Shown here in pieces: positions 14,083 through 55,862 of a DNA stretch of 55,862 nt (position 1 is its first letter; each line of letters begins with the position of its first letter). The stretch is from a virus (taxonomy: Duplodnaviria; Caudoviricetes), in the IMG/VR virus record IMGVR_UViG_3300025862_000001, positions 1 to 55,862 of that record; one strand, written 5' to 3'. Both the position numbers and the translations under genes were made by a program. The notes beneath the pieces are model-generated. The model had not been told where the DNA came from. It saw only the letters and a program-made list of their open reading frames with translations, and ran no database searches.

Positions 14083-14145
14083 CTTAGTCGCCGGCCCATA
14101 TAGCCCGCGACCGACCCGACCCGAACGCGGGCGATGAGAACACAC

Positions 14146-22930: not shown

Positions 22931-22959
22931 AGTATCGCACCTCCTTGCCTGCTTGTCAA
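22931..22959 (-). promoter_or_regulatory. Early-type promoter (leaderless)
   Basis: TTGACA-AGCAGGCA..N17-GATACT, ATG 6 nt downstream. Confidence 0.75.
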
Positions 22960-23001
22960 TGGCAGGGAGGCTCTCTAAACGAATGTACTAGGAGGCGTAA
23001 A

Positions 23002-40112: not shown

Positions 40113-40130
40113 AACATTCGTCCAAAGCCC

Positions 40131-40159
40131 TTGACAAGCAGGCATGGATAGCCGATACT
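40131..40159 (+). promoter_or_regulatory. Early-type promoter (leaderless)
   Basis: TTGACA-AGCAGGCATG..N17-GATACT, ATG 6 nt downstream. Confidence 0.8.
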
Positions 40160-40165
40160 GTTCAT

Positions 40166-40471
40166 ATGGAGCACACAACCAAAGGAACCGAGGACATCAT
40201 GGACGCCACAAAGATCATCGAGCAGGCAGACCAGCAGCTTGCCGCCTTCCGTAATCGCCGGGCGCTGGATTCCCTCGGGAAGCGTGAAGCCCAGCCAAAA
40301 CTCGACGCTATCGCCGCACTCGACCGCGAGATCGCAGAGGAACAAGCGCGCGTCCACCTAACATTCCGCACGCTCGATATGCTTGAGCGCCTGGATCACA
40401 AGACAGAAGACTTCCCTGACGACGCGATCGAGCCGCATGTAGACGACGAAGGATACGAGGTGACGCGATGA
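40166..40471 (+). CDS. Hypothetical early protein
   Basis: Directly follows promoter. Confidence 0.6.
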   Translation: MEHTTKGTEDIMDATKIIEQADQQLAAFRNRRALDSLGKREAQPKLDAIAALDREIAEEQARVHLTFRTLDMLERLDHKTEDFPDDAIEPHVDDEGYEVTR

Positions 40472-40948
40472 CCGCGCACACCCACAACGCGAACGCGACA
40501 CCCCAGCAGATCGCTGGGCAGATATCGGGCGTCAACCGGACACACCGAGCCGCCGAACGTCGCATGGCGGCAGAGCGTCAAACCCACTACGACAAGCCCG
40601 GCGTCCCCGGACACCCTCGCTGCTGCATCTGCGACGATTGCGAGGCGCGGCGATGACCTACAACACCAACAAACCAGAGCGCCGCAAAGGAGAGAGGCGC
40701 GCGGAAGCCGCACGCTACGCCGGAGGCAACCGTAAGCTCCAGACCGATCGCCGATTCAGCGACACAGTCCTTTTCGGCGGTGTCCCGTACAGCGTGAACG
40801 AGAGTGCTACGTACGTACGCCGCAGTGAGAACCCTGAGCTTGTTCCCCCGTGGCAAGTGCGCCGCAATCGGCCCGATGAGACCTTCGAGGTGCTCAGTGA
40901 ACACACGACCGAAGAGGGCGCGGTTGCTGCGCTGACGAGGAGAACGAG

Positions 40949-41542
40949 ATGATGGCACGCCGACTAGACCCATTCGAGCCCGGACTTGAGCTGGAGGAAC
41001 GCCAAGACCGCATGGGCGGATACGTACTGAAGCTGCGCCGGCAGGTAGGCTCCGTCTTCTGGGGCGAAGACATAACCGTCACCTCACTTCGCTCCTACGA
41101 CGAGGAATCTGGTATTCTCAAGCTGTTCGCACTGACCGGGCGAAGCCACAAGAAGCTAGACCCAAGTAGAGAGTGCGGGCAATCACGTACCATTCACATC
41201 AACGAAATCTTGAAATCAAAACAAGGAGGCCGCATGAGCACTGCAACGAAAGCACCTAAGAAGACCACTGCACCGAAGGCTAAGAAGGCAGCCACACCGA
41301 AAGCACCTAAGAGGGCTGATGAAGGCCAAGGCACCAAGACAGATGAGACGCTGGCTACCACCGCCAAGTCTGAGGTTGTGAAGGCTGAGCGTTTTGCTAA
41401 GCGGATCGAGGCGCTTGCGATGCGTGAGGCAGGTAAGAAGTTCCAGGAGATCGCCGACCGCTTCGGTTGGGCGAACTCCGGTGTCGCTAACAACGCCGTC
41501 CGCCGCGCGAAGGCAGCTCGGGACGGTGTAGAGGCGAAGTAG
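40949..41542 (+). CDS. Protein with histone-like PAKK region and C-terminal HTH (likely internal start at 41234)
   Basis: ALAMREAG..FQEIADRFG; AAGGAGG before ATG 41234. Confidence 0.7.
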   Translation: MMARRLDPFEPGLELEERQDRMGGYVLKLRRQVGSVFWGEDITVTSLRSYDEESGILKLFALTGRSHKKLDPSRECGQSRTIHINEILKSKQGGRMSTATKAPKKTTAPKAKKAATPKAPKRADEGQGTKTDETLATTAKSEVVKAERFAKRIEALAMREAGKKFQEIADRFGWANSGVANNAVRRAKAARDGVEAK

Positions 41543-41549
41543 CTTCACT

Positions 41550-41593
41550 GGCCGCGTGTGCGCGAGCAGCGGGATCGAATCCTGCCGCGGCCA
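41550..41593 (+). ncRNA. Minimal tRNA-like element
   Basis: 7-bp acceptor-like stem, GNRA hairpin, 5-bp T-arm with ATCGAAT loop. Confidence 0.6.
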
Positions 41594-42007
41594 ATACAAA
41601 AAAACAACCAAACGAAAGGAACGGTGCTGTGATGAATTACGGTAAGCTCCTGATCGACGGGAGCACGTTCGGCCGCGCACATGCACGGCTCGATATGAAA
41701 CTCGCAGGGATCGAAGGCGTCGAGCCGGTCGCGCCTCACCTCAAGCTCGTATCGAACGCCGGCTACGCAGACACTCACCCTGAGGACTGGTACGATCGCG
41801 AGAAAGCAGCGCTGCGCGACGCCGGACGAGAGCTAACGTAACCGTCAAGGGCCGTGTATACTCTAAGCGTGCTCTAGAGGGCAACCGGCAACTTGCCGAG
41901 CATCCTACTGAGCGACCCGTGCGGTGCTGGCGTACAAGACAGCTTGGCGTCAGCAGCCCACGGAACACACCTAAAAATAAAAAGAACAATTGAATAAGGA
42001 GGACCGG

Positions 42008-42847
42008 ATGGCAACCGCTAAACCGAACTCTCGCACCCTACAGGAGAGCGAAAACGAACCGCTGCACGTCATGTACTACGGCGACGGCGGGACCGGCAAG
42101 TCTTCACACCTATGCTCGCTTGCGAACAACGGGCGTGTGCTGGTCGTGAATGCTGAGAAGGGAATCAAACGACGCGCACTACAGCGCATCGGCATAGCCG
42201 TCGAGAACATCGAGGTCTTCCCGGTAGGTGACGAGGAGATCACGTACGAGTCGCTAGAGCGCGAGTGGCTTCGCATACGTGAAGCCCTTCATGCAGACCC
42301 GACAGCGTACGTCGGATATCTGTGGGACTCAATGACGCAGATATACAACGTGCTTCTGGAACACGCTAAGGTCGCCGGAGAAGAGTGGGAAGCCCGTACC
42401 GGCAAGAAGCGAGATCCGCGTAACGACTTCGGTGACGCAAACGACCAGCTACGGAAGCTGACGCGGAAAGCAATGGACCTCCCTTGCCACTTCGGCGCCA
42501 GTGCGCTGGAGCGTCGCGACCAGGACGATGACGGCACCGTTACATACCGTCCGTCGATTCCACCGGGGTTGATGAAGGACACCTATGGATGGTTCGATCT
42601 GGTCGCACACACAACCCTAGAGGTGGTAGGCGAGCACGAACAATACCGCGGGCTATTCAAACCCCTCGGCAAGTACCGTGGTAAAGATCGTGAAGGGGTA
42701 ATGCCGCGAACGGTAGTCAACCCGTCGTTTGATCGAGTCATCGCCTACGCGGAGGAGTCGCTAACAGCAAAGACCGACCCAGTTATGATAACTGCACAAG
42801 AGCAAATCAGCGCACAAAAGAAAACCACAACGCAAGAGGAGAAGTAA
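42008..42847 (+). CDS. AAA ATPase (Sak4/AAA_24-like recombination protein)
   Basis: YGDGGTGKS, NAEKG, WDSMT, GKDR. Confidence 0.88.
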   Translation: MATAKPNSRTLQESENEPLHVMYYGDGGTGKSSHLCSLANNGRVLVVNAEKGIKRRALQRIGIAVENIEVFPVGDEEITYESLEREWLRIREALHADPTAYVGYLWDSMTQIYNVLLEHAKVAGEEWEARTGKKRDPRNDFGDANDQLRKLTRKAMDLPCHFGASALERRDQDDDGTVTYRPSIPPGLMKDTYGWFDLVAHTTLEVVGEHEQYRGLFKPLGKYRGKDREGVMPRTVVNPSFDRVIAYAEESLTAKTDPVMITAQEQISAQKKTTTQEEK

Positions 42848-43222
42848 GTGACACGAGAGGAGCTAGCATGGCTAGCGGGACTCTTAGAGGGTGAGGGCAG
42901 TTTCTTTCTTGTGAAAAAGAAGTCTGGTCGCTCCTACCCGAGAGTCTCACTAAACATGACGGACGAGGATGTCATCGAACGAGCCGCGAACTTGTTAGGC
43001 CGTGGGTACTATCCTTTTCCAAGGAAGCCTCCTCGCAAGGAACAGTTTGCACTCCAAATCGAAGGGCGCGGTGCGGTAGTTCTCATGGAGGAGATACTTC
43101 TTTTTATGGGTTTGCGCCGATCAGCTCAACTCAACGAACTCATCAAATACCATTACGAAAACGCAGCTTACAAACAAAGGAAAGGTGAGCACAATTCCCA
43201 AGCTAAACAAAAAACAAGCTAA
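42848..43222 (+). CDS. LAGLIDADG homing endonuclease
   Basis: LAWLAGLLEGEGSF, MTDEDVI. Confidence 0.9.
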   Translation: MTREELAWLAGLLEGEGSFFLVKKKSGRSYPRVSLNMTDEDVIERAANLLGRGYYPFPRKPPRKEQFALQIEGRGAVVLMEEILLFMGLRRSAQLNELIKYHYENAAYKQRKGEHNSQAKQKTS

Positions 43223-43655
43223 AGATGTCGGCGACGCTAGCGGGAGCTTTGATCCCCTAGAGGATGGTGTTTATCATGCAAGACTTAGAAGTGTCGAGGT
43301 AAGTGATAACGCTGGGCCTTCTGGCAGTTTCTATTGGAAGTGGGAGTTCGAGGTCGTAGAGGAGCCATACGTAAACCGGCGCCTGTGGACGAACACATCA
43401 CTCGCTGAGGCAGCGGCCTTCAAGCTCAAGGAGATGTTCGACGCGTTCGGTGTAGACAACGACACCGACACGGACGAGCTGTGCGGTCAGGTAGTGCGTC
43501 TGGTAGTGTCCACGCGCACGATCCAGGAGGGCTCACGTAAGGGCGAGGCATCCAATCAGATCGACCGCGTGTCGCCGGCCGACGAGTCCTTCGAGGCACC
43601 CGAGGCCGAGGCAACAGGTGCCGTCAAAGGAGCGGACGGAGAGGATTTATTCTAA
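43185..43655 (+). CDS. DUF669-like single-stranded DNA-binding protein
   Basis: FDPL.DG.Y, WEFEV, acidic tail ending DLF. Confidence 0.85.
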   Translation: MSTIPKLNKKQAKDVGDASGSFDPLEDGVYHARLRSVEVSDNAGPSGSFYWKWEFEVVEEPYVNRRLWTNTSLAEAAAFKLKEMFDAFGVDNDTDTDELCGQVVRLVVSTRTIQEGSRKGEASNQIDRVSPADESFEAPEAEATGAVKGADGEDLF

Positions 43656-43771
43656 GATAGAGGTACATGGGCAGCCGCAGCGTCGAGTCCTCTCCCCGGT
43701 CCCCTCGACGCCCGCCGAGCGTGTTTATAAACGACCCGTAGCCGGGCGCCCACTCTTACTAGAACCTAACG

Positions 43772-44980
43772 ATGGCAAAACCTCTCACAGTCGGCTCGCT
43801 CTTTGCGGGGATAGGAGGCTTCGACCTAGGACTTGAGCGGGCCGGTATGAAAACCGCATGGTTCTGTGAGCAAAACACATACTGCCAAAAGGTACTAGCG
43901 AAGCATTGGCCTAAAGTACCCTGTTACGATGATGTCTGTGAGATCGGAGCGCACAATGTCAAACCTGTTGATATTCTCGCCGGAGGATTCCCCTGCCAAG
44001 ATATCTCAACGGCTGGTAAGGGGGCGGGGCTCGCAGGTGCGCGGTCGAGTCTTTGGCGAGAGTTTGCCCGACTCATTGGCGAGCTTCGACCTTCCTACGT
44101 CATCGTGGAGAATGTTCCAGCTCTCCGCAGACGGGGCTTGCATCAGGTCCTCCATGACCTCGATGCGTGCGGGTATGATGCGGAGTGGGACGGTATATCC
44201 GCTTCGGCCGTTGGCGCCCCTCACCGCCGCGACAGAATCTGGATTGTTGCCTACCACAACAGCGACGATGGGCGATCGTGGGGGGCGAGGGGATTTGCTC
44301 CAGGCAGTGAGAGGCAATCTGAGCCCGAGCGGGCACTTCACGTTCCCGTCCCCAACGCAGGCGGACGGAACTGGAGGGCCGGGACGGTCAGCAGCGACGA
44401 GGGGTGGTGGGCCTCTGAACCCGACGTGGGTCGAGGGCTTGATGGGTTTTCTCGCTGGCTGGACGGACGTGACCTAAATGCCGATGCCCTACACGGACTG
44501 CGGGCCGAAGATTTGCGAGTTCTGCAAAGGCGAGTACAGGCGTCGCCGGCAACAGTCTACGCGGACATTTCAGCGGAGCAAGTTCTGCTCGCTTACCTGC
44601 GCCAACTCACGTCGAGATGTGACGGAGGGGACGTTGCGCTGGCGTGCCCGGAAGCTGCGGGGTCCGAAATGCGAGGCATGCGGGACGACACGCAAGCTCC
44701 AGGCTCACCATGTCGATCAGGACATAGCGAACAACCATCCGACCAACATCCAGACGCTCTGCAAGGAGTGCCACGACTTCTGGCACGCGACGCAGAGGCG
44801 ACTTGGCTGGCTTATCGCAGGTCGGATGCCTGCCCTCAACTGGGATGGGAGGACGGCATCGCCAGAGTCGCCGATGGAGTCCCCCACCGGGTACACAGAC
44901 TTAGGGCTCTCGGCAACAGTCTCGTCCCACAGATCGCCCAGTGGGTCGGTGAGCAGATCGTAGCGTTCGATAATGGCTAA
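43772..44980 (+). CDS. C5 cytosine DNA methyltransferase (alpha chain)
   Basis: SLFAGIGG, GGFPCQD, VENV, HRRDR, LGNSLVP. Confidence 0.95.
   Translation: MAKPLTVGSLFAGIGGFDLGLERAGMKTAWFCEQNTYCQKVLAKHWPKVPCYDDVCEIGAHNVKPVDILAGGFPCQDISTAGKGAGLAGARSSLWREFARLIGELRPSYVIVENVPALRRRGLHQVLHDLDACGYDAEWDGISASAVGAPHRRDRIWIVAYHNSDDGRSWGARGFAPGSERQSEPERALHVPVPNAGGRNWRAGTVSSDEGWWASEPDVGRGLDGFSRWLDGRDLNADALHGLRAEDLRVLQRRVQASPATVYADISAEQVLLAYLRQLTSRCDGGDVALACPEAAGSEMRGMRDDTQAPGSPCRSGHSEQPSDQHPDALQGVPRLLARDAEATWLAYRRSDACPQLGWEDGIARVADGVPHRVHRLRALGNSLVPQIAQWVGEQIVAFDNG
43956..44477 (+). CDS. Nested alternative-frame C5-MTase beta chain
   Basis: GMMRSG, LLPT, LNPTWVEGLMGF..GWT (motif IX-like); GGAG RBS. Confidence 0.75.
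   Translation: MSNLLIFSPEDSPAKISQRLVRGRGSQVRGRVFGESLPDSLASFDLPTSSWRMFQLSADGACIRSSMTSMRAGMMRSGTVYPLRPLAPLTAATESGLLPTTTATMGDRGGRGDLLQAVRGNLSPSGHFTFPSPTQADGTGGPGRSAATRGGGPLNPTWVEGLMGFLAGWTDVT
44478..44963 (+). CDS. HNH endonuclease overprinted within the MTase gene
   Basis: CEFC, KFCSLTC, CEACG, AHHVD...NN...N..TLCKECH. Confidence 0.85.
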   Translation: MPMPYTDCGPKICEFCKGEYRRRRQQSTRTFQRSKFCSLTCANSRRDVTEGTLRWRARKLRGPKCEACGTTRKLQAHHVDQDIANNHPTNIQTLCKECHDFWHATQRRLGWLIAGRMPALNWDGRTASPESPMESPTGYTDLGLSATVSSHRSPSGSVSRS

Positions 44981-47462
44981 GCTCCGTGACGCTCAAGCGC
45001 TGCATAAGCTCGGCTGGCGCGTCGTAGCTGCTCCGCTCGCCGGCAAGTCACCTCTAAACTCGTGGAAGGGTGCGCAGACCGAACCGGCGACTTCGGCCGA
45101 GCTAAAGGAGGCGTTTGCGAAGGACAGAAACCTCTTCATCGTTACCGGAGCGATCAGCCGGCTAGCGGTGCTCGACTGTGACGACAAGCAAGCAGAGATC
45201 TACTGGCACGAGCGACTCGGAGACGTACTCGACGAAACGACCTGCGTTGCGACCGGCCGCGGGCGCCACTACTACTTTCGTTTAGCTGAGGGTGAGATCC
45301 ACAAAGGGAGATCGTCCCCCGGCGGAGATAGCGGCAAGTGGGACATACGCGCCGAGGCCGGCGGCGTGATTGCACCGCCTAGTGTTCACGCTGGAGGAAG
45401 AGTTTATAGGTGGGGCCAAGGCCGCGGCCCTGACGCCATACAAGACGCTCCAGAGGAGCTGTGGGCCGGTGAGAAGAAGGCGGAGGACAAGCTGAGCGGC
45501 CCATCCTCACTGCTCTCACACCTGCTAGCGAACCCGCCGGAGGAAGGCGCGCGAAATAACTGGCTGGCGCGAGTTGCGGGTCACTACGCCGTCGAACTCA
45601 AGCACCAAGACGCTTTCGAAGAGACCGTGCGCGGACTCGGGCAGAGTGTCGGACTTGAAGACGAGGAGATCAAGAAGCTAATCGCGTCAATCTGGAACGC
45701 CGAGCAAGCCAAGGAGGGCAAAGCCGCGCCAGAGGACGCGCCAGAGGGTGAGGGCGGAGACTGGCGCATCGGACAATGCACAGAATCCTCCGGCTACCTG
45801 ATGAGTGGCGACACACGCATCCTAACCCAGATTCGCGAACGTGACTCAGACGGCGGCTTTCAGATCGCGTTAGCGCCCTGGCTAGACGCAGACCTACGCG
45901 CGATCGGAATCTTCGAAATGCCAGACGAGACGCGACTCTACCACGTCGAGATCCGCACGCCCGGCAAAGTGTACGACGGCGACGTCGGATCGAAGACGCT
46001 AGGCGACTCACGCCAGCTAGTCCAGTGGCTTGCAAGCTTTGGCGTCAGCCTATCGGCGCCGGACGGGATCTTCCCCCGCGGTATGGCGTCAGGCGCTCGC
46101 CTCGTGCGCTACCTAGAGGCACAGCAGCCGCCCGTACAGCTAGCCGTCGCGGCACTGGGATGGCATGAGGAGTCAGCGGCGTTCATCACCCACGAAGGGC
46201 TCCTACGCGCCGACGGTTTCGCGCCGTTTGAGGCCGTTCGCCCCTCTCCGCGCGTAAAGCAGTGGGCACCGTACGTTTACGGCTTAGAGGGCGCCGAGCA
46301 CTCCGCACAGGCGGTGCTGTCCGAGGTGCTGACCTTCCACGATGAGCGCGTTGCGGCCATCTTCGGTGCGTGGTGGGCAGCCTGCCTACTCAAGCCGCAG
46401 ATCGCACACGAGTTCTCGCAGTTTCCATTTATGGCCTTGGAGGCGCCTTCAGAGAGCGGAAAGACAATTGGTTACTTTCCCTTGATGTTGGAATTGGCTG
46501 GCAATACCCAAGGGAACAGCAACCCCACACGCGCCGCGATGCGCGACTACCTCTCAGCTCATCGCTCCGGGATCGTGTGGGTCGATGACCTAGACAACCT
46601 AGACGCACTCGGAGAGCTTATCCGCGGCTCAACCGTCGGCGGGTCCGTGGTAAAGAAGGCGCTCAACCAGTCAGACCAAATCTCCGTTCGGCTTGAGGCT
46701 GCGCTGTGTGTCAGCGGTGAGTCGCTGGGCCTACACGGCCAGAAGGCGCTGCTCGACCGCAGCATAGGGCTGGAGGTGCCCTCGCCCGTCGGTAGGCGCT
46801 CCCTGCACGGCGACTACTCCCAGTTTCAGGACATCGTAGAGCTGAAACGCAAGCACCCGGCGCTGAGCGACTTCGCCGGCACGTACATGGTGCGTGCGCT
46901 AAAGCTAGTACCGGAAATACCCTCTAAGGCTCTCGATCTCCGAGAGGGCGACGGACGGTTGATGGACAAGCTCACAATCATGCGGCTCGGCTGCTGGGTT
47001 CTCCGTACGTTGATCGACCGCGATAGCAGCGATTGGATCGAACGCCACGTTGAGGGGTGGGTAGCTGAGCAGCGCGCAGATTACGACCCAACCGACAATA
47101 GCCTCACGATGCAGCTACTACCAGCCGCTATCAAGCGCCTGGGGCGCCCCGCACAGCCGCTCGGACCAGATACCAGTAGGTCTAGGCCAGCGAGCCCCGC
47201 ATTCGTGAGAGCGCACGAGAAAGACTTATGGTTCAACCCGACCACGCTCGCGGAATGGTGGAGCGACATCCACTATGGGCGAATCGACCAGCGCACCGCG
47301 TCCTCTGAAGCGCTCCGCCAGCAGGCAAAAGCGATTGGTGCTGGGGGAAAGAAGGGGACAGATCGTCGTTATTTCCCGTACTCGACCGGGTCTGGGGGAG
47401 CAAACTTTTGGCGTCTTCCAGACAAGATCGCCGCTCAGGTGCTCAAGCGCGCGGAGGAATAG
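44973..47462 (+). CDS. Bifunctional primase-polymerase with helicase-like domain
   Basis: VLDCD, TGRGRHYYF, DIRA.GGVIAPPS.H, RNN, APSESGKT. Confidence 0.9.
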   Translation: MAKLRDAQALHKLGWRVVAAPLAGKSPLNSWKGAQTEPATSAELKEAFAKDRNLFIVTGAISRLAVLDCDDKQAEIYWHERLGDVLDETTCVATGRGRHYYFRLAEGEIHKGRSSPGGDSGKWDIRAEAGGVIAPPSVHAGGRVYRWGQGRGPDAIQDAPEELWAGEKKAEDKLSGPSSLLSHLLANPPEEGARNNWLARVAGHYAVELKHQDAFEETVRGLGQSVGLEDEEIKKLIASIWNAEQAKEGKAAPEDAPEGEGGDWRIGQCTESSGYLMSGDTRILTQIRERDSDGGFQIALAPWLDADLRAIGIFEMPDETRLYHVEIRTPGKVYDGDVGSKTLGDSRQLVQWLASFGVSLSAPDGIFPRGMASGARLVRYLEAQQPPVQLAVAALGWHEESAAFITHEGLLRADGFAPFEAVRPSPRVKQWAPYVYGLEGAEHSAQAVLSEVLTFHDERVAAIFGAWWAACLLKPQIAHEFSQFPFMALEAPSESGKTIGYFPLMLELAGNTQGNSNPTRAAMRDYLSAHRSGIVWVDDLDNLDALGELIRGSTVGGSVVKKALNQSDQISVRLEAALCVSGESLGLHGQKALLDRSIGLEVPSPVGRRSLHGDYSQFQDIVELKRKHPALSDFAGTYMVRALKLVPEIPSKALDLREGDGRLMDKLTIMRLGCWVLRTLIDRDSSDWIERHVEGWVAEQRADYDPTDNSLTMQLLPAAIKRLGRPAQPLGPDTSRSRPASPAFVRAHEKDLWFNPTTLAEWWSDIHYGRIDQRTASSEALRQQAKAIGAGGKKGTDRRYFPYSTGSGGANFWRLPDKIAAQVLKRAEE

Positions 47463-47468
47463 CTGCCC

Positions 47469-47497
47469 TTGACAACCAGTCATCTATGACGTAAGCT
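47469..47497 (+). promoter_or_regulatory. Sigma70-type promoter
   Basis: TTGACA-N17-TAAGCT. Confidence 0.6.
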
Positions 47498-47527
47498 ATA
47501 TAGCACATACAACAAAGGAGGTTACTG

Positions 47528-48331
47528 ATGGATGTAGTAGCGACGCTGCGAGAGATCGCAGATCAACTAGAGGAGGCGACAGCAAGCGCCGATGTGTTCG
47601 TCTTCAACGACAGGGAAGGACCGGTTTCTGCTGCCCGGCACACGAACCCCAACGGTAGCGTAGGCGGGTGGGTCGCTGCAACTGCCACAGTAGCATCATC
47701 CGCGTGGGTGCTCGGTAACGCGCGGGTGTACGGTAACGCGTGGGTGCTCGGAGACGTGTGGGTGGACGGTAACGCGCAGGTGTACGGTAACGCGTGGGTG
47801 GACGGTAACGCGCAGGTGTACGGTAACGCGAAGGTGCTCGGTGACGCGGGGGTGGACGGTAACGCGAAGGTGCTCGGAGACGCGTGGGTGGACGGTAACG
47901 CGAAGGTGCTCGGAGACGCGTGGGTGGGTGGTAACGCGAAGGTGCTCGGAGACGCGTGGGTGGGTGGTAACGCGAAGGTGCTCGGAGACGTGTGGGTGTA
48001 CGGTAACGCGAAGGTGTTCGGAGACGCGTGGGTGGACGGTGACGCGAAGGTGTACGGTAACGCGCAGGTGTACGGTAACGCGTGGGTGCTCGGAGACGTG
48101 TGGGTGGACGGTGACGCGAAGGTGTACGGTAACGCGAAGGTGTACGGTAACGCGTGGGTGCTCGGTAACGCGCAGGTGCTCGGTGACGCGGGGGTGTACG
48201 ATGACGCGAAGGTGTACGGTAACGCGAAGGTGTACGGTAACGCGTGGGTGTACGGTAACGCGTGGGTGTACGGTAACGCGAAGGTGTACGGTAACGCGTG
48301 GGTGTACGGTGACGCGAAGGTGTCTCAATGA
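47528..48331 (+). CDS. Left-handed beta-helix (hexapeptide repeat) protein
   Basis: More than 30 G(N/D)A(W/K/Q)V(Y/L/D) repeats (18-nt DNA repeat); AAGGAGG RBS. Confidence 0.9.
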   Translation: MDVVATLREIADQLEEATASADVFVFNDREGPVSAARHTNPNGSVGGWVAATATVASSAWVLGNARVYGNAWVLGDVWVDGNAQVYGNAWVDGNAQVYGNAKVLGDAGVDGNAKVLGDAWVDGNAKVLGDAWVGGNAKVLGDAWVGGNAKVLGDVWVYGNAKVFGDAWVDGDAKVYGNAQVYGNAWVLGDVWVDGDAKVYGNAKVYGNAWVLGNAQVLGDAGVYDDAKVYGNAKVYGNAWVYGNAWVYGNAKVYGNAWVYGDAKVSQ

Positions 48332-48645
48332 CTACGTTCCCAACAGACCCAACCGGAGCTGAGTTGGAGATTGTCTATATAGAGCGAGGACGGCAAGCGC
48401 AGTTGAAGGCCGAGGGGCGCTTCAGATACACGCTCGCAGACAGGGAGATGCCAGAGCTCGCAAAGCTCGCCTGCATCATAGAGGAGGTTGGTGAGGTGGG
48501 TCGCGACGTGCTCGCAAGTGAGGGGCTTGTAACAGACGGGGACACATCTCTAGTAGCACTGCACAAGGAGCTGTGTCAGGTCGCTGCTCTGTCGGTCGCG
48601 TGGATGGAGTACCTGACGTTGCTGATGGATTCGGGGCTGGTATGA
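48328..48645 (+). CDS. MazG-like nucleotide pyrophosphohydrolase
   Basis: EEVGEV...KEL.QVAA..VAW. Confidence 0.8.
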   Translation: MTTFPTDPTGAELEIVYIERGRQAQLKAEGRFRYTLADREMPELAKLACIIEEVGEVGRDVLASEGLVTDGDTSLVALHKELCQVAALSVAWMEYLTLLMDSGLV

Positions 48646-49514
48646 GTACGCACGTGGTTTCTTATAGTGAGTTGGATGCGATACGTCAATGTAAGTTGAA
48701 GAGTTATTTGAGCTATCAGGAGCGGTGGCAGCCTGAGACAATCAGCGCAGCGCTGTCGCGCGGCAAGCTCTTTCATAGCGTGATGGAGGCTTACTACAGC
48801 ACAAAAGTCGCAACGCATGATGGTGGTGGGGTAATGCAGACCGGAGACCCGTACGCAATACTTGACGCAGCCGACGAAAACGAGGAGACCGAGCTAGTGC
48901 GCTGGATGTTCGATGGCTACATAGAGCAATGGGGGGATGACTCGCAGTGGGAGATACTAGCGGTCGAGCAGCGAGTAGAGGATTGGCTGCGGACACCTAA
49001 CGGGCGGAGGTCTACATTCAAGCTCAAGGGCATCGTAGACCTGCTCGTACGCGATCACTCAGCCGGCGGCGGACTGTGGATCGTAGACCATAAGACGTGC
49101 TCCGAACTCCCGAAGCAGAAGGCGCTCGACTTCGATGACCAGTTCGGGATATATATGTGGTTGTTGAAACGGCAAGGGCACGACATCAGAGGCGTGATAT
49201 ACAACGCTTGCCGAACCAAAAAACTGAAGCGTGATATGTCGCTCGACGAGCGCTTCCGACGCGAGTACACGGTCCGAACAGACCGTGAGTTGGAGACGAT
49301 GGCTGGCGAGGCGCTCCAGACGTTTAGGTCGGCGTATAGGGGACATGTTAGGGGGGCAAAGGGGGGGGACATACTGCCGCCGCGCTCGCCGGATCCGGAC
49401 AGATGTGGTTGGCGATGCCCCTTTACGGAGTCCTGTCTGATGAGTCGGAAGGGGAGCGACATCCGCGAGCTGCTGACCGAAACCGGCTTCACACAGTCGT
49501 ACGAGAGGCACTAA
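48642..49514 (+). CDS. PD-(D/E)XK (Cas4/RecB-like) exonuclease
   Basis: SYSEL...C, G..FH, VE, GIVD, IVDHKT, Q..IY, C.W.CPF..C. Confidence 0.9.
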   Translation: MSTHVVSYSELDAIRQCKLKSYLSYQERWQPETISAALSRGKLFHSVMEAYYSTKVATHDGGGVMQTGDPYAILDAADENEETELVRWMFDGYIEQWGDDSQWEILAVEQRVEDWLRTPNGRRSTFKLKGIVDLLVRDHSAGGGLWIVDHKTCSELPKQKALDFDDQFGIYMWLLKRQGHDIRGVIYNACRTKKLKRDMSLDERFRREYTVRTDRELETMAGEALQTFRSAYRGHVRGAKGGDILPPRSPDPDRCGWRCPFTESCLMSRKGSDIRELLTETGFTQSYERH

Positions 49515-49829
49515 ATGTCTTTATCGGGCGTTTACATTCAAACGGCGCGAGGACTAAAGAAGAGCAGAGATCCGCAGGGTCGTGCGATGAATCAAGTAGC
49601 GCGTGCAATCAAGGAAGGAGAGCTAGCGAGACCCAACATTTGTGATAACTGCGGAGATGCAGATTGGTGGCGTTTGCAGGGAAAAACCGTAAGAATATCA
49701 GCGCATCACACCGACTATAGAAAGCCTCTCGATGTTGAGTGGTTGTGTGATCCTTGCCATAGAGCAGCGGACAAGGAGAGGCGTCAGAAAGAACAGAAAG
49801 ACGTGGATCAGTGGTATGTCCCCCAGTAA
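49515..49829 (+). CDS. HNH endonuclease
   Basis: CDNCG, AHHTDY.KPLDVEWLCDPCH. Confidence 0.88.
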   Translation: MSLSGVYIQTARGLKKSRDPQGRAMNQVARAIKEGELARPNICDNCGDADWWRLQGKTVRISAHHTDYRKPLDVEWLCDPCHRAADKERRQKEQKDVDQWYVPQ

Positions 49830-50143
49830 GCCGAATTCGCGTTTTTCTGTCCCCATACAGACCCATACATAATATAGAGTTTGTCCCCATTTGTCCCCAT
49901 GTCCCCCATCAAAATACTATAACGTGAGAATCTTGCTTGTAGTAGTATATAATCATTAGATATTACTACAAGTAGCTTTTACCTACGTAGACGAGCATAT
50001 CTGCCAAGAAGGGGGACACAATCACGAAATCCCTGCAAATCAGCACTTTATAGGGGGACAATTTTATGATTCATTTTGATGCGCAGGGGGACACCCCTAA
50101 CGAATCCCCCGCAAATCATGGGTTTTAGAGGGGACACCCCTAA
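49817..50143 (+). other. Putative replication origin with inverted iterons
   Basis: AT-rich intergenic region; 5x TGTCCCC then 4x GGGGACA around a central palindrome. Confidence 0.7.
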
Positions 50144-50154
50144 AGGAGATTGAA

Positions 50155-50511
50155 ATGGAAGAGCTCAAACGAGAGTACGAAACCATCGCGTACGATGGTG
50201 AGCAAGTCACGGTTGAGATTCCTCGCCAAGAGATCCTACGGCGCCTCAAGCAAGCTCAGAAGTCTCAAGAGAAAGAAGCTAAACGTCAGGCACGAGAAGA
50301 GGTAGCGCTGAAGCCGCGAATCCTGAGAGCTTTGAAAGAACACCCTGACGGCCTAAACAAGTCGCAGGTCTACCTTCATGTCGGGTGCTACCCTTCCGGC
50401 GGCTCTCTCGCGCTAGCTCAGCTAGAGCAAGCAGGTAAGCTCAGCTTCGAGCAGCGATCAGGTGTCGGAAAAGCTATCATCTGCCGACTAACGGAGGACA
50501 CGAATGTTTGA
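50155..50511 (+). CDS. Winged-helix DNA-binding protein
   Basis: IL.ALKEHPDGLNKSQV...L.QLEQAG; AAGGAG RBS. Confidence 0.7.
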   Translation: MEELKREYETIAYDGEQVTVEIPRQEILRRLKQAQKSQEKEAKRQAREEVALKPRILRALKEHPDGLNKSQVYLHVGCYPSGGSLALAQLEQAGKLSFEQRSGVGKAIICRLTEDTNV

Positions 50512-50731
50512 GCACAGAGAGCAGAAGCGACCCAAAGACTGTGAAACGCTGCTGAAGCCGCTCGGATCGGGGTGGGGGAACACAAGCGAACTAGCCCGCC
50601 AGCTAGGCTGGTCCCGGCGACGAGTACGCAACGCCATACGCGCCATGCGAGCCGACGTAGACCATGAACGAAAGATCGGCGCGCACGGAGTAGAAGAAGA
50701 CCGCTGGATACTCAAAGATGCGCTGAGATGA
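50504..50731 (+). CDS. HTH DNA-binding protein
   Basis: TSELARQLGWSRRRVRNAI. Confidence 0.75.
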   Translation: MFEHREQKRPKDCETLLKPLGSGWGNTSELARQLGWSRRRVRNAIRAMRADVDHERKIGAHGVEEDRWILKDALR

Positions 50732-51387
50732 AGCCATACTACGAGGACGAGCACGTAACCATATTCTGCGCCGACTGGCACGATGCCGCCGCGGAGTTGA
50801 AGGCGCTCCCGATCGACGCGGTAGTTACAGACCCTCCGTACGGGATTGGAGCTGATACGACACAGGCGCTCCGAGCAAACGTGCAAGGCGGAGCGGCGTT
50901 GGCCGCCAGCATTGATTACGGAGCCACCGACTGGGATCAGGAGCCGCCAACACCGGAGGACTTCAGACAGCTTCTCAAACTTAGCAAGCAGCACATCTTT
51001 TGGGGCGGGAACTACTTCGTGCTCCCGCCGCAATCAGGTTGGCTCGTGTGGGACAAGGAGACAGGAGCAAACACGTACGCTGACTGTGAGCTAGCATGGA
51101 CCGATCTACCGATGGCGGTGCGACTCATAAAACATGAGTGGAAGGGAATGTTCAAGAAGAATCGCAAGGAAGAACGCTTCCACCCGACACAGAAGCCACT
51201 AGAAGTTATGCTCTGGACGCTGAAATTTCTAGCTGACGACACTCGCATGGTCTGTGACCCTTACATGGGGAGCGGCACAACTCTACGCGCCGCGAAGGAT
51301 TTAGGAATGCGTGCTGTCGGTGTAGAGCGTGAAGAGAAGTACTGCGAGGTAGCGGCCAGGCGCCTTGGGCAAGGTAATCTTTTCTGA
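50728..51387 (+). CDS. N4/N6 DNA methyltransferase (beta class)
   Basis: TDPPYG, WGGNYF, HPTQKP, DPYMGSGTT. Confidence 0.95.
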   Translation: MKPYYEDEHVTIFCADWHDAAAELKALPIDAVVTDPPYGIGADTTQALRANVQGGAALAASIDYGATDWDQEPPTPEDFRQLLKLSKQHIFWGGNYFVLPPQSGWLVWDKETGANTYADCELAWTDLPMAVRLIKHEWKGMFKKNRKEERFHPTQKPLEVMLWTLKFLADDTRMVCDPYMGSGTTLRAAKDLGMRAVGVEREEKYCEVAARRLGQGNLF

Positions 51388-51398
51388 GGAGGTACGGA

Positions 51399-52070
51399 AT
51401 GAATATCATTGAAGGCGACTGTTTAGAAGTAATGCAGAAGATGGAGGCTGAAAGCGTTGACGCCGTAATCACCGACCCGCCGTACGGCATGGCCTACCAA
51501 TCGAACTATCGAACTGCCACGCCACAGTTCGACGCAATCGACAACGATGCAGTCTTTGACCCAGAGTGGCAGTTAGCGTGGATGAAGCAGTGCTATCGAC
51601 TGCTGAAGAACGACAGGCACTTCTACGCCTTCTGCAACGACTTACACCTTGGTGAGTTCAGGTCAACTTGTGCAGAGGCAGGCTTCACGGTAAAGCGCAC
51701 AATCGTTTGGGTGAAGGATGCGTCAGGGATGGGGGACCTCACCGGGGACTATGCTCATTTCACTGAGTTTTGTGTGTTCGCACATAAGGGCACACGTGAT
51801 CTCATGAATGGGCGCCCGTCAAATGTCATCGAGGCCCGTCGTGTAGCTCCAGGACAGATGGTTCACCCAACCGAGAAGCCGATCCGTGTACTGCGACCGC
51901 TGATCACCAACAGCACTGAGGTAGGCGAGACGATCCTAGACCCATTCGCCGGATCAGGCTCGCTGGGAGTCGCAGCTAAAGAAGAGAACCGCGAGGTGGT
52001 GCTCATCGAGAAAGAGAAAAAGTACGTGGAGATAATTGAGGGCCGACTCGCGCAGGGTAAGCTATTCTAA
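51399..52070 (+). CDS. N4/N6 DNA methyltransferase (beta class)
   Basis: TDPPYG, HPTEKP, DPFAGSG. Confidence 0.95.
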   Translation: MNIIEGDCLEVMQKMEAESVDAVITDPPYGMAYQSNYRTATPQFDAIDNDAVFDPEWQLAWMKQCYRLLKNDRHFYAFCNDLHLGEFRSTCAEAGFTVKRTIVWVKDASGMGDLTGDYAHFTEFCVFAHKGTRDLMNGRPSNVIEARRVAPGQMVHPTEKPIRVLRPLITNSTEVGETILDPFAGSGSLGVAAKEENREVVLIEKEKKYVEIIEGRLAQGKLF

Positions 52071-53917
52071 TGGAACAGAAGTACGACTGGGAGGGACTAG
52101 CGGCCGCTGACGTAGTAGCTGTGGACTGCGAGAGCAACGGATTATTTCCAGATGACGGAGCGCGCGTCTCGTGCGTAGCCTGCGCCTGGGAGGGCGGGAG
52201 CCTCGCGTTACCCTTCGATCAAGGTGACCGCGACAAGGAAGAGAAACAAACGGGTCAGTTCACTTTCGAGGACACCGAAGAGGACCCTAATCTCGACGAG
52301 CACGAGTGGAAACAGCTGCTGTGGTTACTCCGCAGCAAACGACTCGTGTTCCACAATGCCGGCTTCGATCTGATTATGCTCGCAGCCGGAACCCGACATT
52401 GGAAAGGGGCCGATTTAGGTGACATGCTCCATTGGGACACGATGATCGCGCACCGCATACTCAGACCCAACAGCTCAGCCGGACTAGACAACGCCGCACG
52501 AGAGCTAGGAGTAGGAGGAAAGCAAGGATTAGATGAGGTAAAGGATTGGCTACGAACAGCGAAAAAGCCGAAGGGACGCTACGACCTAGCGCCCTGGCAT
52601 GTTATTGAGCCGTATGTGCGAGGGGACGCTGAGACAACACTGGCGCTGTACGAAGAACAGGTACGCCACTTCAAGGAGGATCCAGCCATCGAGCGAGAGC
52701 GTCGCCTGCGAGAGTGCCGGCGCGAGTTCGACCTAGCGGTGGTGCTGATGAGAATGGAGCAGCGCGGGCTAGGCTACGACGCCGAGCGATCCCTGTTGGC
52801 AGCTGAGGAGATGGAACAAAAGTGCGCTGACATTGTCGCGCGCCTACCCTTCAAACTAACGCCAGCCGGCGCCAGAGGATACTTTCTAGAGCAAGGGCTA
52901 ACAGTTGACCGCACGACCCCAAAGGGAGCCCCGTCGATCGACAAAGAGCAGATCCGCGACTGGGCAGAGGAAGGCGCCCAGTGGGCTGCCGAGTACCGCG
53001 ATGCAACCAAAGCCAAACGCGCAGCCTCAATGTGGTATCGGGGATATGCAGAGAAGCTCGGGGAGGACGGGAGGCTCCGGTGCCGCTACCGACAAACGAA
53101 GCAACGAGATGACGGTGGTGATAGTGGATCAAGGGCAGGGCGGCTGTCGGCCGAGCGCGTAAACCTGCAAGCAATGCCCAAAGGCGACAAGATCGAGGAG
53201 GGGATGGTCGGCGTTCGGGAACTGCTACTCGCTAAGAAGGGATGCAGTTTGATTTCGCTGGACATGTCACAGGCCGAGCTTCGGTGCGCCGCAAAGTACA
53301 GTGAGTGTGAGAAGATGCTGACGATGCTAAACGAGGGAGTTGACTTCCACGGCAAAGCAACCGAAGACGTAATGCACGTAGGGCGCGACCATCCCGAATG
53401 GAAGCTCAAGCGAGACATCGGTAAGAAGCTGACCTTCGGCGCGATCTTCGGTATCGGCGGTGAGAGCTTTCAAGCACTACTCACACGGGAAACAGACCTT
53501 CAACTAGAGGTAGCGGAGTGTGACCGTTTGGTTGCAGACTGGCGTCGAACATATCCCGAGATCATGGCCGCTTACAGGCGAGCCGAGCGCGTGTTCCGTG
53601 AGCGTGGATACGTGAGAATACTGCCAGGGACCGAGTACGAGAGCAAGTCGTATCTCGCTGACGGGGATTGGCCGCATACCGGGTGGAACCGAATGGTGCA
53701 AGGGTCGCTGGCAGCGTGGCTCCGGTTGTGGTTAGTTGAAATCGAGCGCGAGGTGCCAGGCGCACTCGTACTGACCGTACATGATAGTGTGGTGCTTGAG
53801 CTCCCTAAACGCACCGCGAAAAAAACAGCTCAAAAGGTGGCTGATAAAGCCGCCGAGCGAGCAAGTGCCTTATTCGATACTCCGATGACTGTGGATCTGG
53901 AGGTGTACGTGAAATGA
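52070..53917 (+). CDS. Family A DNA polymerase with 3'-5' exonuclease domain
   Basis: DCE, FHNAGFD, Y..GD, GRLS, DMSQAELR, R..GK..TFG, VHDS. Confidence 0.95.
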   Translation: MEQKYDWEGLAAADVVAVDCESNGLFPDDGARVSCVACAWEGGSLALPFDQGDRDKEEKQTGQFTFEDTEEDPNLDEHEWKQLLWLLRSKRLVFHNAGFDLIMLAAGTRHWKGADLGDMLHWDTMIAHRILRPNSSAGLDNAARELGVGGKQGLDEVKDWLRTAKKPKGRYDLAPWHVIEPYVRGDAETTLALYEEQVRHFKEDPAIERERRLRECRREFDLAVVLMRMEQRGLGYDAERSLLAAEEMEQKCADIVARLPFKLTPAGARGYFLEQGLTVDRTTPKGAPSIDKEQIRDWAEEGAQWAAEYRDATKAKRAASMWYRGYAEKLGEDGRLRCRYRQTKQRDDGGDSGSRAGRLSAERVNLQAMPKGDKIEEGMVGVRELLLAKKGCSLISLDMSQAELRCAAKYSECEKMLTMLNEGVDFHGKATEDVMHVGRDHPEWKLKRDIGKKLTFGAIFGIGGESFQALLTRETDLQLEVAECDRLVADWRRTYPEIMAAYRRAERVFRERGYVRILPGTEYESKSYLADGDWPHTGWNRMVQGSLAAWLRLWLVEIEREVPGALVLTVHDSVVLELPKRTAKKTAQKVADKAAERASALFDTPMTVDLEVYVK

Positions 53918-54333
53918 AATGCGTTATCGCAGTAGATCCCGGGGGAGCGCACGTAGGCGTCGCGACCTGGCATGGGGGAGAGGAGATCGACGCTACAGAG
54001 ATCGATGCCGAGATGTGGTTGCCTCTATTTAGGCGGATGATAAAGAGCGCCGACGTAGTGATAATCGAGAAGTTTGTCCTATATCCAGGAAAGGCTTCAG
54101 CGCAATCATGGTCTCCAATGACGACGAGTGAAATGATCGGGGCGATGCGCTGGATAGCGGCCGAGGCAACGGTGGAAGTCGTAATGCAAGGTGCTGACAT
54201 CAAGAACCCAACACGCCGGCAATGCAAGGCGCGACACATTCAGTGGAAGGACAATAAGAGCGGACACGCTTCTGACGCTCTCTTACATCTCCAATACTAC
54301 TTGACCCGAAACGAACTACAGGAGGTAGTATGA
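53914..54333 (+). CDS. RuvC-like Holliday junction resolvase
   Basis: IAVDPG, VIIEKF, H..DA..H. Confidence 0.8.
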   Translation: MKCVIAVDPGGAHVGVATWHGGEEIDATEIDAEMWLPLFRRMIKSADVVIIEKFVLYPGKASAQSWSPMTTSEMIGAMRWIAAEATVEVVMQGADIKNPTRRQCKARHIQWKDNKSGHASDALLHLQYYLTRNELQEVV

Positions 54334-54884
54334 AGTCGGAGTACGACACATGTCCGCGATGCAAAGGGCGAAAGCTCGTGCGGTCGCGGCTGTGCGTACA
54401 TTGCAAAGACGCGGGCGCTGCAAGCAACGCTTGGAAAGGAGGCAAGCCGCCGTGTCCTCGCTGTGGTGGTCCGAAGTTTAGATCGTCTAAACAATGCAGA
54501 AAATGTGGGGGCACAAAATACGATGACGAGCAGCACCTAACCGCAGCAGAGAAGATGCGTGCGTATCGACAGACCCCAAAAGGTGCCGCGGTTATTCGAA
54601 ACGCGAACCTCAAATCTACGCACGGTATAACTGTGCTAGAGTACGACGCGATGGTTGAGGCGCAGGGCGGCGTATGCGCTGCCTGCAATCTCCCCGAGAC
54701 ACATCGCAACCAGCACGGACCTGTACGACTTGCAGTAGATCACAACCACGAAACAGGAGCTATTCGCGGGCTACTATGCCAGCGATGTAATACCTCTCTA
54801 GGGCTCCTATCCGATTCACCCGAGCGGATTCGTGGTTTACTTCTATACCTAGAGAACCAGGAGGTGATGCCTTATGCCCAGTAA
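54330..54884 (+). CDS. Endonuclease VII-family homing endonuclease
   Basis: Q.GVCAAC, LAVDHNH.TG.IRGLLCQRCN. Confidence 0.92.
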   Translation: MKSEYDTCPRCKGRKLVRSRLCVHCKDAGAASNAWKGGKPPCPRCGGPKFRSSKQCRKCGGTKYDDEQHLTAAEKMRAYRQTPKGAAVIRNANLKSTHGITVLEYDAMVEAQGGVCAACNLPETHRNQHGPVRLAVDHNHETGAIRGLLCQRCNTSLGLLSDSPERIRGLLLYLENQEVMPYAQ

Positions 54885-55715
54885 ACCAACGAAACACGGT
54901 TATCTGTGCGGTAGATCGGCCCTATGACACACATTCCACACTTCAATTTCCCGCTGTTTCACGCAGCAGCAAAAGAGCTACGGAAACGAGGCTGGGAAAT
55001 AACCTCACCCGCAGAGCTCGACTCACCAGAAGCGAAAAAAGCAGCCGAAGAGTCCCTAACCGGCGACGCCTCACACTACGCAGCAAACGACAGTTGGGGA
55101 GACCTACTAGCCCGCGACGTAAAGCTCATCGCAGACGGAGCAATCGACGCGATCATCTGCCTACCAGGGTGGGAACGCTCACGCGGCGGAAAACTAGAGA
55201 CATACGTTGCCCGTTTATGCGGGCTGCCGCTACTCGAATACCCGACGCTGGACGAGATCCACGCAAACCGCATCGACCACGCCCACGGACATGAGGAGGC
55301 AAGTTACAAACACCTAACCGATCGAACAAAAGAAATACAAGAAATGGAGTTCGTACCAGATACATACCGAGACGATCCTCACGAGATAAGGGTCACAGAC
55401 CCAAAGACAGGCGGCCAGAAGGGGAGCAAGATTCAACGCTATGACTTGCTTCCTTGGGATCAACTTGATAAGCTAGCTGAACTGTATGGGTGCGGCGCAG
55501 AAAAGTACGAGCCGAGAAATTGGGAGCTTGGGTATGCGTGGTCTCTCTCCTTCGCTTCAGCACACCGACACATGAAGATGTTTTGGCAAGATCACGAGTC
55601 GCTTGATTCCGAAACAAAATGTCACCATCTAGCGTCGGCTATCTTTCACCTCCTAGCGCTAATGCGTTTTGAGGAGCAGTACCCGGAGAAAGACGATCGC
55701 AGTGTATCCCTCTAG
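54874..55715 (+). CDS. DUF4406-like domain fused to dATP/dGTP diphosphohydrolase (DUF5664), with an 8-nt insertion near the N-terminus
   Basis: YLCG|PMT...FNFP.F, LPGWERSRG..LE; TGGQKG, RYDLLP, GAEKY..RNWE.G, RH, D.ET..HHLA. Confidence 0.88.
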
Positions 55716-55735
55716 ACTACCTAAACACGACCTTG

Positions 55736-55862
55736 CAAAGCTCCGCGGCAAGCGAATGAAAGATATGACCAGAGGGGAACGTATCTCAGCGGTAAAGCAA
55801 GGCATATTTCCTCCAGTTCGCTCAGAGCGAGAGCGACAACTTCGCTCGCGCTACGGGTTGAC
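55736..55862 (+). repeat. 127-bp terminal direct repeat of 1-127 (circular assembly overlap)
   Basis: Exact match to bases 1-127; 127 is a common assembler k-mer size. Confidence 0.95.

Follow-up and report, generated by a model that had tools for sequence, protein, structure and literature searches.

We analyzed the complete virus record IMGVR_UViG_3300025862_000001 (hereafter the window), a soil phage genome (Caudoviricetes) of 55,862 bases that has direct terminal repeats, is rated complete and has a G+C content of ∼58%. The element in question is a frame break close to the start of its DUF4406 gene. Here, a 13-codon head with its own Shine–Dalgarno (SD) element ends with one glycine codon, five nucleotides follow, and a long body continues from a second glycine codon in another frame. 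A break of the same build interrupts the SNF2 helicase gene of the same phage. The helicase gap is also found in a diverged relative, and its conservation argues for recoding. For the DUF4406 gap, the reading we tentatively prefer is that ribosomes bypass eight nucleotides, from glycine codon to glycine codon.

The DUF4406 gene and its eight extra bases

The head and its surroundings agree letter by letter with what a preliminary description of this DNA had read: an SD element, ATG 54874, GGT, AGATC, and then GGC CCT ATG. The codons of the head are ATG CCC AGT AAA CCA ACG AAA CAC GGT TAT CTG TGC GGT. Past this last GGT (54910–12), the head frame continues with AGA (54913–15) TCG GCC CTA and ends at TGA (54925–27). 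The body frame, open to 55715, has an internal ATG at 54924 that overlaps this TGA; just upstream of the proposed landing codon, the same frame contains TAG (54912–14), then ATC and GGC (54918–20). The gene-caller product, P0001, starts at ATG 54924 and has 263 residues. The body scores 47.2 bits against DUF4406 (PF14359; cut-off 22, E 3.1e-12) over profile positions 7–89 of 91, and a dGTP_diPhyd_N match (E 1.1e-26) lies behind it. The DUF4406 match begins at the G of GPMT, and the first six profile positions are found in the head, in the other frame.

For comparison, we aligned 13 intact homologues selected from 120 listed. YLCGPMT had been taken for the start of a DUF4406 domain, and all 13 homologues indeed carry Y-[LIV]-[AC]-G-P-M-[TS] uninterrupted, in a single frame. 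Tyr-7, Gly-10 and Pro-11 are nearly invariant in this alignment, and Met-12 is invariant. The two nearest intact homologues, P0002 and P0003, begin MSKQHGYLCGPMT and MSKRHGYLCGPMT, and their heads (MSKQHGYLCG and MSKRHGYLCG) match that of the window. P0002 is unbroken and, by hand count, matches the window's N-terminal domain at all but ∼11 of ∼165 aligned residues; the residues with the strongest divergence cluster at the junction (MPSKPTK versus MSKQ, THI versus TGR). Because all 13 homologues are continuous over the break, the DUF4406 gene of the window, judged against its family, carries eight extra bases between Gly and Pro.

In tblastn searches, the DUF4406 protein mostly matched Arthrobacter, Propionibacterium, Mycobacterium and Gordonia phages, in all cases at <60% identity, and blastn of 54330–55862 against phage records gave no match. 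The replication genes of the window resemble those of actinophages. Since these genes and the tblastn matches both point to actinophages, we infer an actinobacterial host. A 10-mer of the gap region, GGTAGATCGG, recurs once in the window, at 51100–51109 (–) within an N6-methylase gene (50728–51387); by our own estimate, ∼0.1 such matches are expected by chance.

Table 1. Parts of the DUF4406 locus and of the SNF2 helicase gene, in window coordinates
Feature	Position	Strand	Remarks
HNH endonuclease gene, Endonuclease_7 family	54330–54884	+	Pfam PF02945, E 3.3e-22; ATG overlaps the stop of a RuvC-like gene; stop TAA 54882–84
SD element GGAGGTG for ATG 54874	54860–54866	+	Inside the 3′ end of the HNH gene; 7-nt spacer
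DUF4406 head, 13 codons, MPSKPTKHGYLCG	54874–54912	+	Proposed take-off codon GGT 54910–12 is the last codon
DUF4406 gap AGATC, 5 nt	54913–54917	+	A-site codon at take-off is AGA 54913–15
Proposed landing codon GGC	54918–54920	+	First GGN after take-off in any frame
Gene body, DUF4406 then dGTP_diPhyd_N	54921–55715	+	Resume codon CCT 54921; from ORF list and Pfam
SNF2 helicase head, 28 codons ending FDEPG	38773–38856	+	Take-off codon GGT 38854–56
Helicase gap TAGTT, 5 nt	38857–38861	+	In-frame stop TAG 38857–59 in the A site
Helicase landing codon and body	38862–40112	+	GGT 38862–64; Pfam SNF2-rel_dom, Helicase_C

An assembly error had been named as something that would undo the case. Logan contigs of runs X1 and X2 (depth ∼150–180), which may be the window's own source runs, cover 38000–55862 with one substitution and no indel. 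Because separately assembled contigs at ∼150× repeat the extra bases, we conclude that they are not an assembly error. More generally, a sequencing or assembly artefact such as an adapter remnant is very unlikely. The insert does include AGATCGG, which we take to be the start of a common sequencing adapter. Yet this heptamer is not over-represented in the window (10 matches versus 7.9 expected), the X1 and X2 assemblies agree and have both flanks correct (with the caveat on their origin just given), and the helicase insert, which has no adapter motif, nonetheless recurs in a third run (X3) and in the related records G001 and L140 (see below). X3 comes from another study and has a depth of ∼5; its 612-nt contig spanning 38422–39033 shows no differences to the window. 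At the DUF4406 site, no bridging piece of X3 was listed. An X3 contig fits the window from 54932 on, 5 nt behind ATG 54924, and is preceded by 27 unrelated letters; this loose end could be an artefact of low depth or mark a recombinant junction. Position 50070 is A in X1, X2 and X3 (all three runs containing the phage) and T in the window. No RNA run containing the phage was found among the runs listed.

Three window-type protein variants, P0001, P0121 (R to C) and P0004 (R to H), have the internal Met as their common start, which fits the presence of the gap in each. After ∼155 residues, P0004 continues as a translation of the opposite strand (ORF 55153–55365), which suggests a hairpin-type chimeric contig as its source. 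The 90% cluster of the nearest intact homologue has two full-length JGI members, P0122 and P0124, whose start is the internal Met called for the window as well; P0126 and P0002 (Logan/ENA members of this cluster) match them elsewhere and start 11 residues earlier. These pairs could represent gapped and ungapped alleles, or merely differences in start calling. The former would fit a mixed population, in which the protein comes from a minority of gapless genomes, or the gap is gained and lost over time; Logan contigs drop rare variants and would show the majority form only. We consider such a mixture improbable: no gapless contig appeared in X1–X3 among the matches shown, phages do not complement each other routinely, and each of two diverged lineages has the helicase gap in fixed form.

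A conserved gap in the SNF2 helicase gene

The preliminary description had likened the DUF4406 break to one in the helicase gene with the geometry GGT, 5 nt, GGY, and we confirmed this arrangement at 38854/38862. The junction reads ATG 38773 ... GAG CCT GGT TAG TT GGT CTG GGT AAG TCC. The body thus opens with GGT CTG GGT AAG TCC, the Walker A motif GLGKS; its first in-frame start codon is GTG 38916, and no start codon is able to serve the motif. Relatives such as L004 and L007 have DEPGLGKS uninterrupted. Among the matches listed, the junction is uninterrupted in 77 of 77 IMG/VR relatives, a sample drawn from 80 loci of which 3 were dropped because the match fell short of the N-terminus.

We searched IMG/VR with the degenerate pattern 'DEPG, five bases, GLGK' and obtained nine matches, one of them a true helicase case. 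This locus, L015 in the 42,591-nt contig G001, reads FDEPG GGC TAG TT GGT CTC GGT AAG. A second record, L140, is identical to G001 over 1261 nt and has the same five gap bases. The helicase genes of the window and G001 share 70.7% DNA identity and 73% protein identity, which allowed substitutions on the two sides of the gap to be compared. For the head (25 aligned codons), 9 of 15 differences fall at third positions and pN/pS is 0.18. For the 18 codons of the body from the landing codon to GTG 38916, 9 of 14 differences fall at third positions and pN/pS is 0.25. In the wrong frames of these stretches, pN/pS ranges from 0.8 to 5, and it exceeds 2 in both other frames of the body. Moreover, despite a pS of ∼0.56, the five gap bases are the same in both genomes, and the sole change in the take-off codon is silent. 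This substitution pattern shows that both flanks of the gap are under purifying selection, each in its proper frame. Because selection acts in the respective frames, the helicase head and the first codons after the gap are, on this comparison, both translated, each in its own frame. Conservation of the gap argues for recoding, most simply by an 8-nt Gly-to-Gly bypass. In the helicase tree, the order of the window, L015, L018, L019 and L020 is unresolved, and a single origin of the gap is compatible with it. The helicase gap is older than the DUF4406 gap and is kept by selection. The ORF next to the window helicase gave no endonuclease family match.

We also compared the window and G001 ORF by ORF across the whole genome, keeping 48 ORF pairs. 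In four pairs, conserved coding begins >10 codons before any start codon in both genomes: the tail-assembly-chaperone frameshift (23376–23630), the helicase, 43146 and 47781. We rejected 43146 as a recoding site (a low-complexity overhang ahead of a normal GTG), and 47781 is probably an alternative frame of a repeat gene. The helicase gap therefore stands, by this measure, beside a textbook recoding site. The chaperone genes (22945–23523 and 23376–23630) form an apparent frameshift pair before the tape-measure gene (24020–26644), and the second frame is conserved in G001 from 61 (window) or 48 (G001) codons before any start. The repeat gene (47528–48331) is made almost entirely of GNAKV[LY]GDAWV-like repeats, and all three of its frames are open on both strands; the Logan contigs of X1 and X2 fragment within it, between 47754 and 48281.

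With the more permissive pattern D-[DE]-x-G, five bases, G-[LF]-G-K-T, IMG/VR yielded 16 matches, again with one true helicase. This gene, L157, lies on a 103,756-nt contig and reads GVLFGDEMG GGC TGA CC GGC TTG GGT AAA ACT, followed by a 540-residue SNF2 body; its gap falls at the same helicase glycine as that of the window. Other searches with the 5-nt spacing gave five matches in JGI metagenomes (L140 and four unrelated sequences) and three in GTDB genomes, none of them a helicase. A GLGKS pattern variant restricted to TCN as its serine codon gave nine IMG/VR matches and no true case.

Bare geometry carries no meaning by itself. The window contains 74 occurrences of GGT-N5-GGY versus 52 expected. 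Junctions of short and long ORFs with the same codon at '+8' number 53, and other spacings give 37–62, so a purely geometric scan for matched-codon junctions, which we tried and set aside, does not discriminate. As for the scan for GGY-N5-GGY frame breaks suggested at the outset, patterns tied to homology found G001 and L157, and bare geometry was uninformative. Because the bare geometry is common, it is homology on both sides that singles out the two window sites.

Bypass and other readings of the DUF4406 gap

Bypass at 54910–54920 is, in our view, the best reading of the DUF4406 gap, although our confidence in it stops short of even. Peptidyl-tRNA-Gly would sit on GGU 54910 with the rare AGA codon in the A site. 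The anticodon would release, the mRNA would slide by 8 nt, and the same tRNA would re-pair on GGC 54918. Decoding would restart at CCU 54921, with a single glycine inserted and a normal Y-L-C-G-P-M-T start. The same device would operate at the P-loop glycine of the SNF2 helicase (GGU 38854, UAG, UU, GGU 38862). At both window sites, re-pairing 8 nt downstream would restore the family sequence exactly.

Several features of the gaps are in line with this mechanism. The take-off/landing pairs are GGU/GGU, GGC/GGU, GGC/GGC and GGU/GGC, all of them U/C wobble pairs, and the first GGN in any frame after take-off lies at +8 in all four sequences (the two of the window, G001 and L157). Three of the four have a stop in the A site (UAG in the window helicase and in G001, UGA in L157). 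In the DUF4406 gap, this position holds AGA, which the phage uses less than any other Arg codon (55 of 810, or 6.8%, in 48 window ORFs); the rarity ascribed to AGA earlier thus holds within the phage's own ORFs. No suppressor or unusual tRNA was found in the window, whose sole tRNA is a tRNA-Met (CAT) at 14010–14083, and Rfam across the whole window returned that tRNA-Met only.

Recoding could instead take the form of a frameshift onto an overlapping or nearby codon, which we regard as improbable, slightly more so than the mixed population considered above. A +2 shift would add Ile-Gly to the DUF4406 protein behind its take-off glycine, and a –1 or +2 shift in the helicase would add Leu-Val-Gly or Val-Gly before LGKS. 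The helicase frames permit this, with the –1 frame open from 38850, and the T/C change that distinguishes the take-off codons of the window and G001 is silent in the –1 frame too (TTA/CTA). However, TAG 54912–14 closes the –1 frame at DUF4406, as the preliminary description had noted, and a slippery heptamer is present at neither site. The shifted Gly anticodon would face UGG, UUA or UAG, with one position matched or none. Furthermore, no extra residue occurs at the junction in any of the 77 listed helicase relatives or the 13 DUF4406 homologues.

The main alternative, to which we assign about a third of the weight, is that the DUF4406 gene is broken or shortened. In one form, translation of the head would stop at TGA 54925–27 and restart at ATG 54924, yielding P0001 without its first strand; in the other, which shares this weight, the gene is dead and the gap is the recent scar of an HNH insertion in a spare gene. 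Because the head-frame stop and the internal start overlap (ATGA), restart is a ready alternative, and gene callers do start P0001, P0121 and P0004 at Met 54924. The gap is confined to one lineage with an intact near relative, and accessory nucleotide-metabolism genes are often dispensable in phages. What such a product would lose was assessed with an AlphaFold model of P0002 (14-row alignment; mean pLDDT 69, and 84–95 over the first 40 residues). Residues 5–9 form strand 1 of a four-strand N-terminal sheet in this model. The best Foldseek matches of the model were nucleoside 2-deoxyribosyltransferases, and these were weak (E 4e-3, target-normalised TM 0.47–0.53); a PDB sequence search with P0002 gave no match. 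The alignment and the model together predict that the head is needed: a product from Met 54924 would miss strand 1, one of four, and the nearly invariant Y7, as well as G10 and P11. In addition, ATG 54924 has no SD element of its own, whereas the head retains a strong SD, an ATG and the conserved HGYLCG, and elsewhere in this genome selection maintains a gap with exactly this geometry.

A number of observations weigh against bypass. None of the 13 aligned homologues, which include diverged relatives, has the DUF4406 gap, and a scan of IMG/VR with the pattern of this gap gave 39 matches, none of them DUF4406 by eye. Given that P0002, a close match, has no break, the gap may have arisen too recently to bear a mark of selection. 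Besides the overlap of TGA 54925–27 with ATG 54924, the nascent chain would be only 13 residues long at take-off. AGA cannot pose great difficulty in decoding, since the phage uses it 55 times. RNA folds of 91-nt stretches at the sites are no better than shuffles (z –0.01, 0.30 and 0.16), which also suits a broken gene. One hairpin of 31 nt at the helicase gap reaches z –1.9, but G001 lacks one of its pairs. The unaided hops over short distances described in PMC5009743 have low efficiency. The 8-nt geometry of G001 and L157 is partly a search effect, because the spacing was fixed at 5 nt; with that spacing alone searched, the two cases cannot show that 8 nt is special. Finally, the GG/GGT microhomology at both ends could stem from the event that made the insertion.

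A recoding switch shared by the two genes had been proposed at the outset. It is well supported at the helicase, whose gap is kept at 70.7% DNA identity under purifying selection. At DUF4406 the switch is no more than a candidate: no diverged carrier of the gap was found, and restart at ATGA is possible.

Endonuclease neighbours and known bypass systems

The DUF4406 gap lies next to an endonuclease gene. The stop of the HNH gene is 25 nt before the take-off codon of the DUF4406 head. In G001/L001, which have no HNH gene here, the RuvC-like gene overlaps the DUF4406 ATG (ATGA); in the window, that ATGA belongs to the inserted HNH gene, whose 3′ end supplies a new SD and ATG for the head. A 49,365-nt relative contig of run X4 is also without the HNH gene and skips from 54281 to 55086. 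Homologues of the HNH gene occur at varied places in 1876 phage records. From this distribution, the gene is probably a free-standing homing endonuclease. The extra bases in DUF4406 probably arrived with it or were selected after it. The preliminary description had offered scars of a mobile element as a second explanation, and this was half right, given the HNH gene that ends 25 nt ahead of the DUF4406 break and is absent in relatives. By analogy, the arrangement resembles the mobA/gene 60 layout of phage T4, where the shielding effect of the insert was reportedly described by Bonocora et al. in 2011. Because the gap adjoins an HNH gene that relatives lack, recoding switch and mobile-element scar may be one and the same reading, as in T4.

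The L157 helicase has a comparable neighbour. A DUF559 endonuclease domain (E 3.8e-11) is encoded by an ORF whose end lies 56 nt before the L157 gap. All 12 relatives of the L157 helicase are unbroken and have ∼20 residues where L157 has ∼190. The N-terminal helicase ORF (6965–7918, –) is open throughout the embedded DUF559 ORF (7027–7749, –), which is in another frame; only 3 of 5000 codon shuffles left the helicase frame open. This is the second case in our data of a host frame open across an overprinted endonuclease gene.

The first such case is a C5 cytosine methylase gene of the window (43772–44980). It has an insert of ∼414 nt (∼44435–44848) between its EPDVGR and VADGVP motifs, with an HNH-like ORF (44478–44963) in another frame whose Pfam HNH match (E 0.0047) falls short of the cut-off. 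Throughout the insert the methylase frame is free of stops, and only 51 of 5000 codon shuffles of the HNH-like ORF leave it open. Rfam found no group I intron in the insert. We also considered the methylase as a third recoding site, with a second frame (43929–44477) as the target-recognition part. This was ruled out, since tblastn with the methylase of phage C72C1 shows a single frame throughout; the second frame resembles an off-frame of the C72C1 gene. Elsewhere in the window, a LAGLIDADG-like gene (42848–43222; Pfam just under cut-offs) separates the RecA-like ATPase gene from the gene that follows. G001 lacks it, and so does the X4 relative, which has eight other letters instead.

It is possible, though we think it unlikely, that homing endonuclease genes from unrelated families (HNH, DUF559) place or select 8-nt gaps as minimal bypass cassettes, in invariant glycine codons adjacent to where they inserted. 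Such a cassette would destroy the endonuclease's own target and leave the host protein unchanged, and soil hosts, probably actinobacteria, would have to perform the 8-nt hop efficiently, a combination we advance with similar reserve. It is equally speculative that a matched codon together with a stop or rare codon would suffice for the hop. What the data show is the insertion, its position, the neighbouring endonuclease gene, and conservation and selection at the helicase; we infer that decoding is by bypass, that bypass is used at the DUF4406 site and that the gap may shield the endonuclease target.

Among known systems, the closest parallel is the large terminase of Streptomyces phage Hau3, for which bypass was first proposed by Smith et al. 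2013 (as cited in PMC10732093). As described in PMC10732093, two 10-nt blocks starting with UUA follow ...GWG, and the junction peptide was detected by mass spectrometry in E. coli; such blocks also occur in prophage StrepC.1 and in a prophage of S. catenulae, with a length of 7 nt in one prophage (Antonov et al., RNA Biol 2023, PMC10732093). Going by that account, Hau3 is, as the window probably is, an actinophage with a short block between sequences that are adjacent in relatives, take-off after Gly, a codon that is slow to decode (here putatively so) opening the block and a conserved junction that argues against a simple frameshift. The two differ in the A-site codon. In Hau3 this is UUA, which involves the bldA tRNA and for which a regulatory role was proposed, whereas the window has UAG and AGA, and L157 has UGA. 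Neither window block has UUA at its 5′ end; they start with AGA (54913) and TAG (38857). Also unlike Hau3, the blocks here are 8 nt long, the genes are an SNF2 helicase and a DUF4406 gene, the evidence is comparative throughout, and two of the three gap events adjoin endonuclease genes.

T4 gene 60 offers a second comparison. Dozens of gene-60-type cassettes are described by Manning & Atkins (10.1101/2022.08.31.505936) as inserted at an invariant Gly (or Asp) codon, with a stop or 'hungry' AGG first in the gap and no premature landing triplet; the Gly codons used for take-off and landing either match exactly or differ by a U/C or G/A wobble. The gaps here share the invariant Gly codon in a DNA-metabolism gene, the matched or wobble Gly codons, the lack of an early landing triplet and the stop or, for AGA, possibly 'hungry' A-site codon, and the DUF4406 gap shares with the MobA cassette an HNH-type endonuclease gene just upstream that is absent from relatives. 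In mobA/gene 60, the insert shields the site from the neighbouring endonuclease (reference 19 of Manning & Atkins). According to the same account, some MobA lineages keep the bypass after loss of the endonuclease, as the window helicase may have done, and VSR-type endonucleases can replace MobA, with which the DUF559 ORF in L157 may be compared. T4 gene 60 differs in its 50-nt gap with stem-loops, a mini-SD and a nascent-peptide signal (as described in PMC5009743), against a 5-nt gap, an 8-nt move and no structure above shuffles here; the host genes differ as well. Because the gaps are 5 nt versus 50 nt long, homology of the inserts to gene 60 is not expected.

Hops over stop or hungry codons in E. 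coli (Weiss et al. 1987, Kane et al. 1992, and Gallant and co-workers, as cited in PMC5009743 and PMC10732093) also have matched codons flanking a stop or rare codon a few bases apart, with peptidyl-tRNA re-pairing downstream. As portrayed there, those hops were synthetic or seen on over-expression and were of low efficiency, whereas the sites here are natural and one is conserved under selection. The 'byp' elements of Magnusiomyces capitatus mitochondria (Lang et al. 2014, as described in PMC5009743, Atkins et al., NAR 2016) are similar in being short frame-breaking inserts in genes; byps are numerous, lie in essential genes, are skipped and have an unused A-site codon. In contrast to the gaps here, they are mitochondrial, longer and subject to relaxed wobble, and the description in PMC5009743 mentions no link to endonucleases. 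Full-text literature searches, which covered few subscription journals, returned no description of bypass in an SNF2 helicase or DUF4406 gene.

The sources cited describe few natural cases of bypass, namely T4 gene 60 with its homologues, the candidate blocks of Hau3 and the byps of yeast mitochondria. On comparative grounds, the helicase gap is as well supported as the tail-chaperone frameshift of the same genome, and there are two further gaps of the same build, each beside an endonuclease gene. If they are bypassed, the elaborate signals of gene 60 would be dispensable over short distances, and bypassing would be tied to homing-endonuclease immunity in a second and third system. Gene callers would then truncate working phage genes or label them as pseudogenes, as with P0001 called from its internal Met. 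If, in addition, the gaps serve as cassettes, short bypassing would be a recurrent, evolvable tolerance of selfish DNA in phage replication genes.

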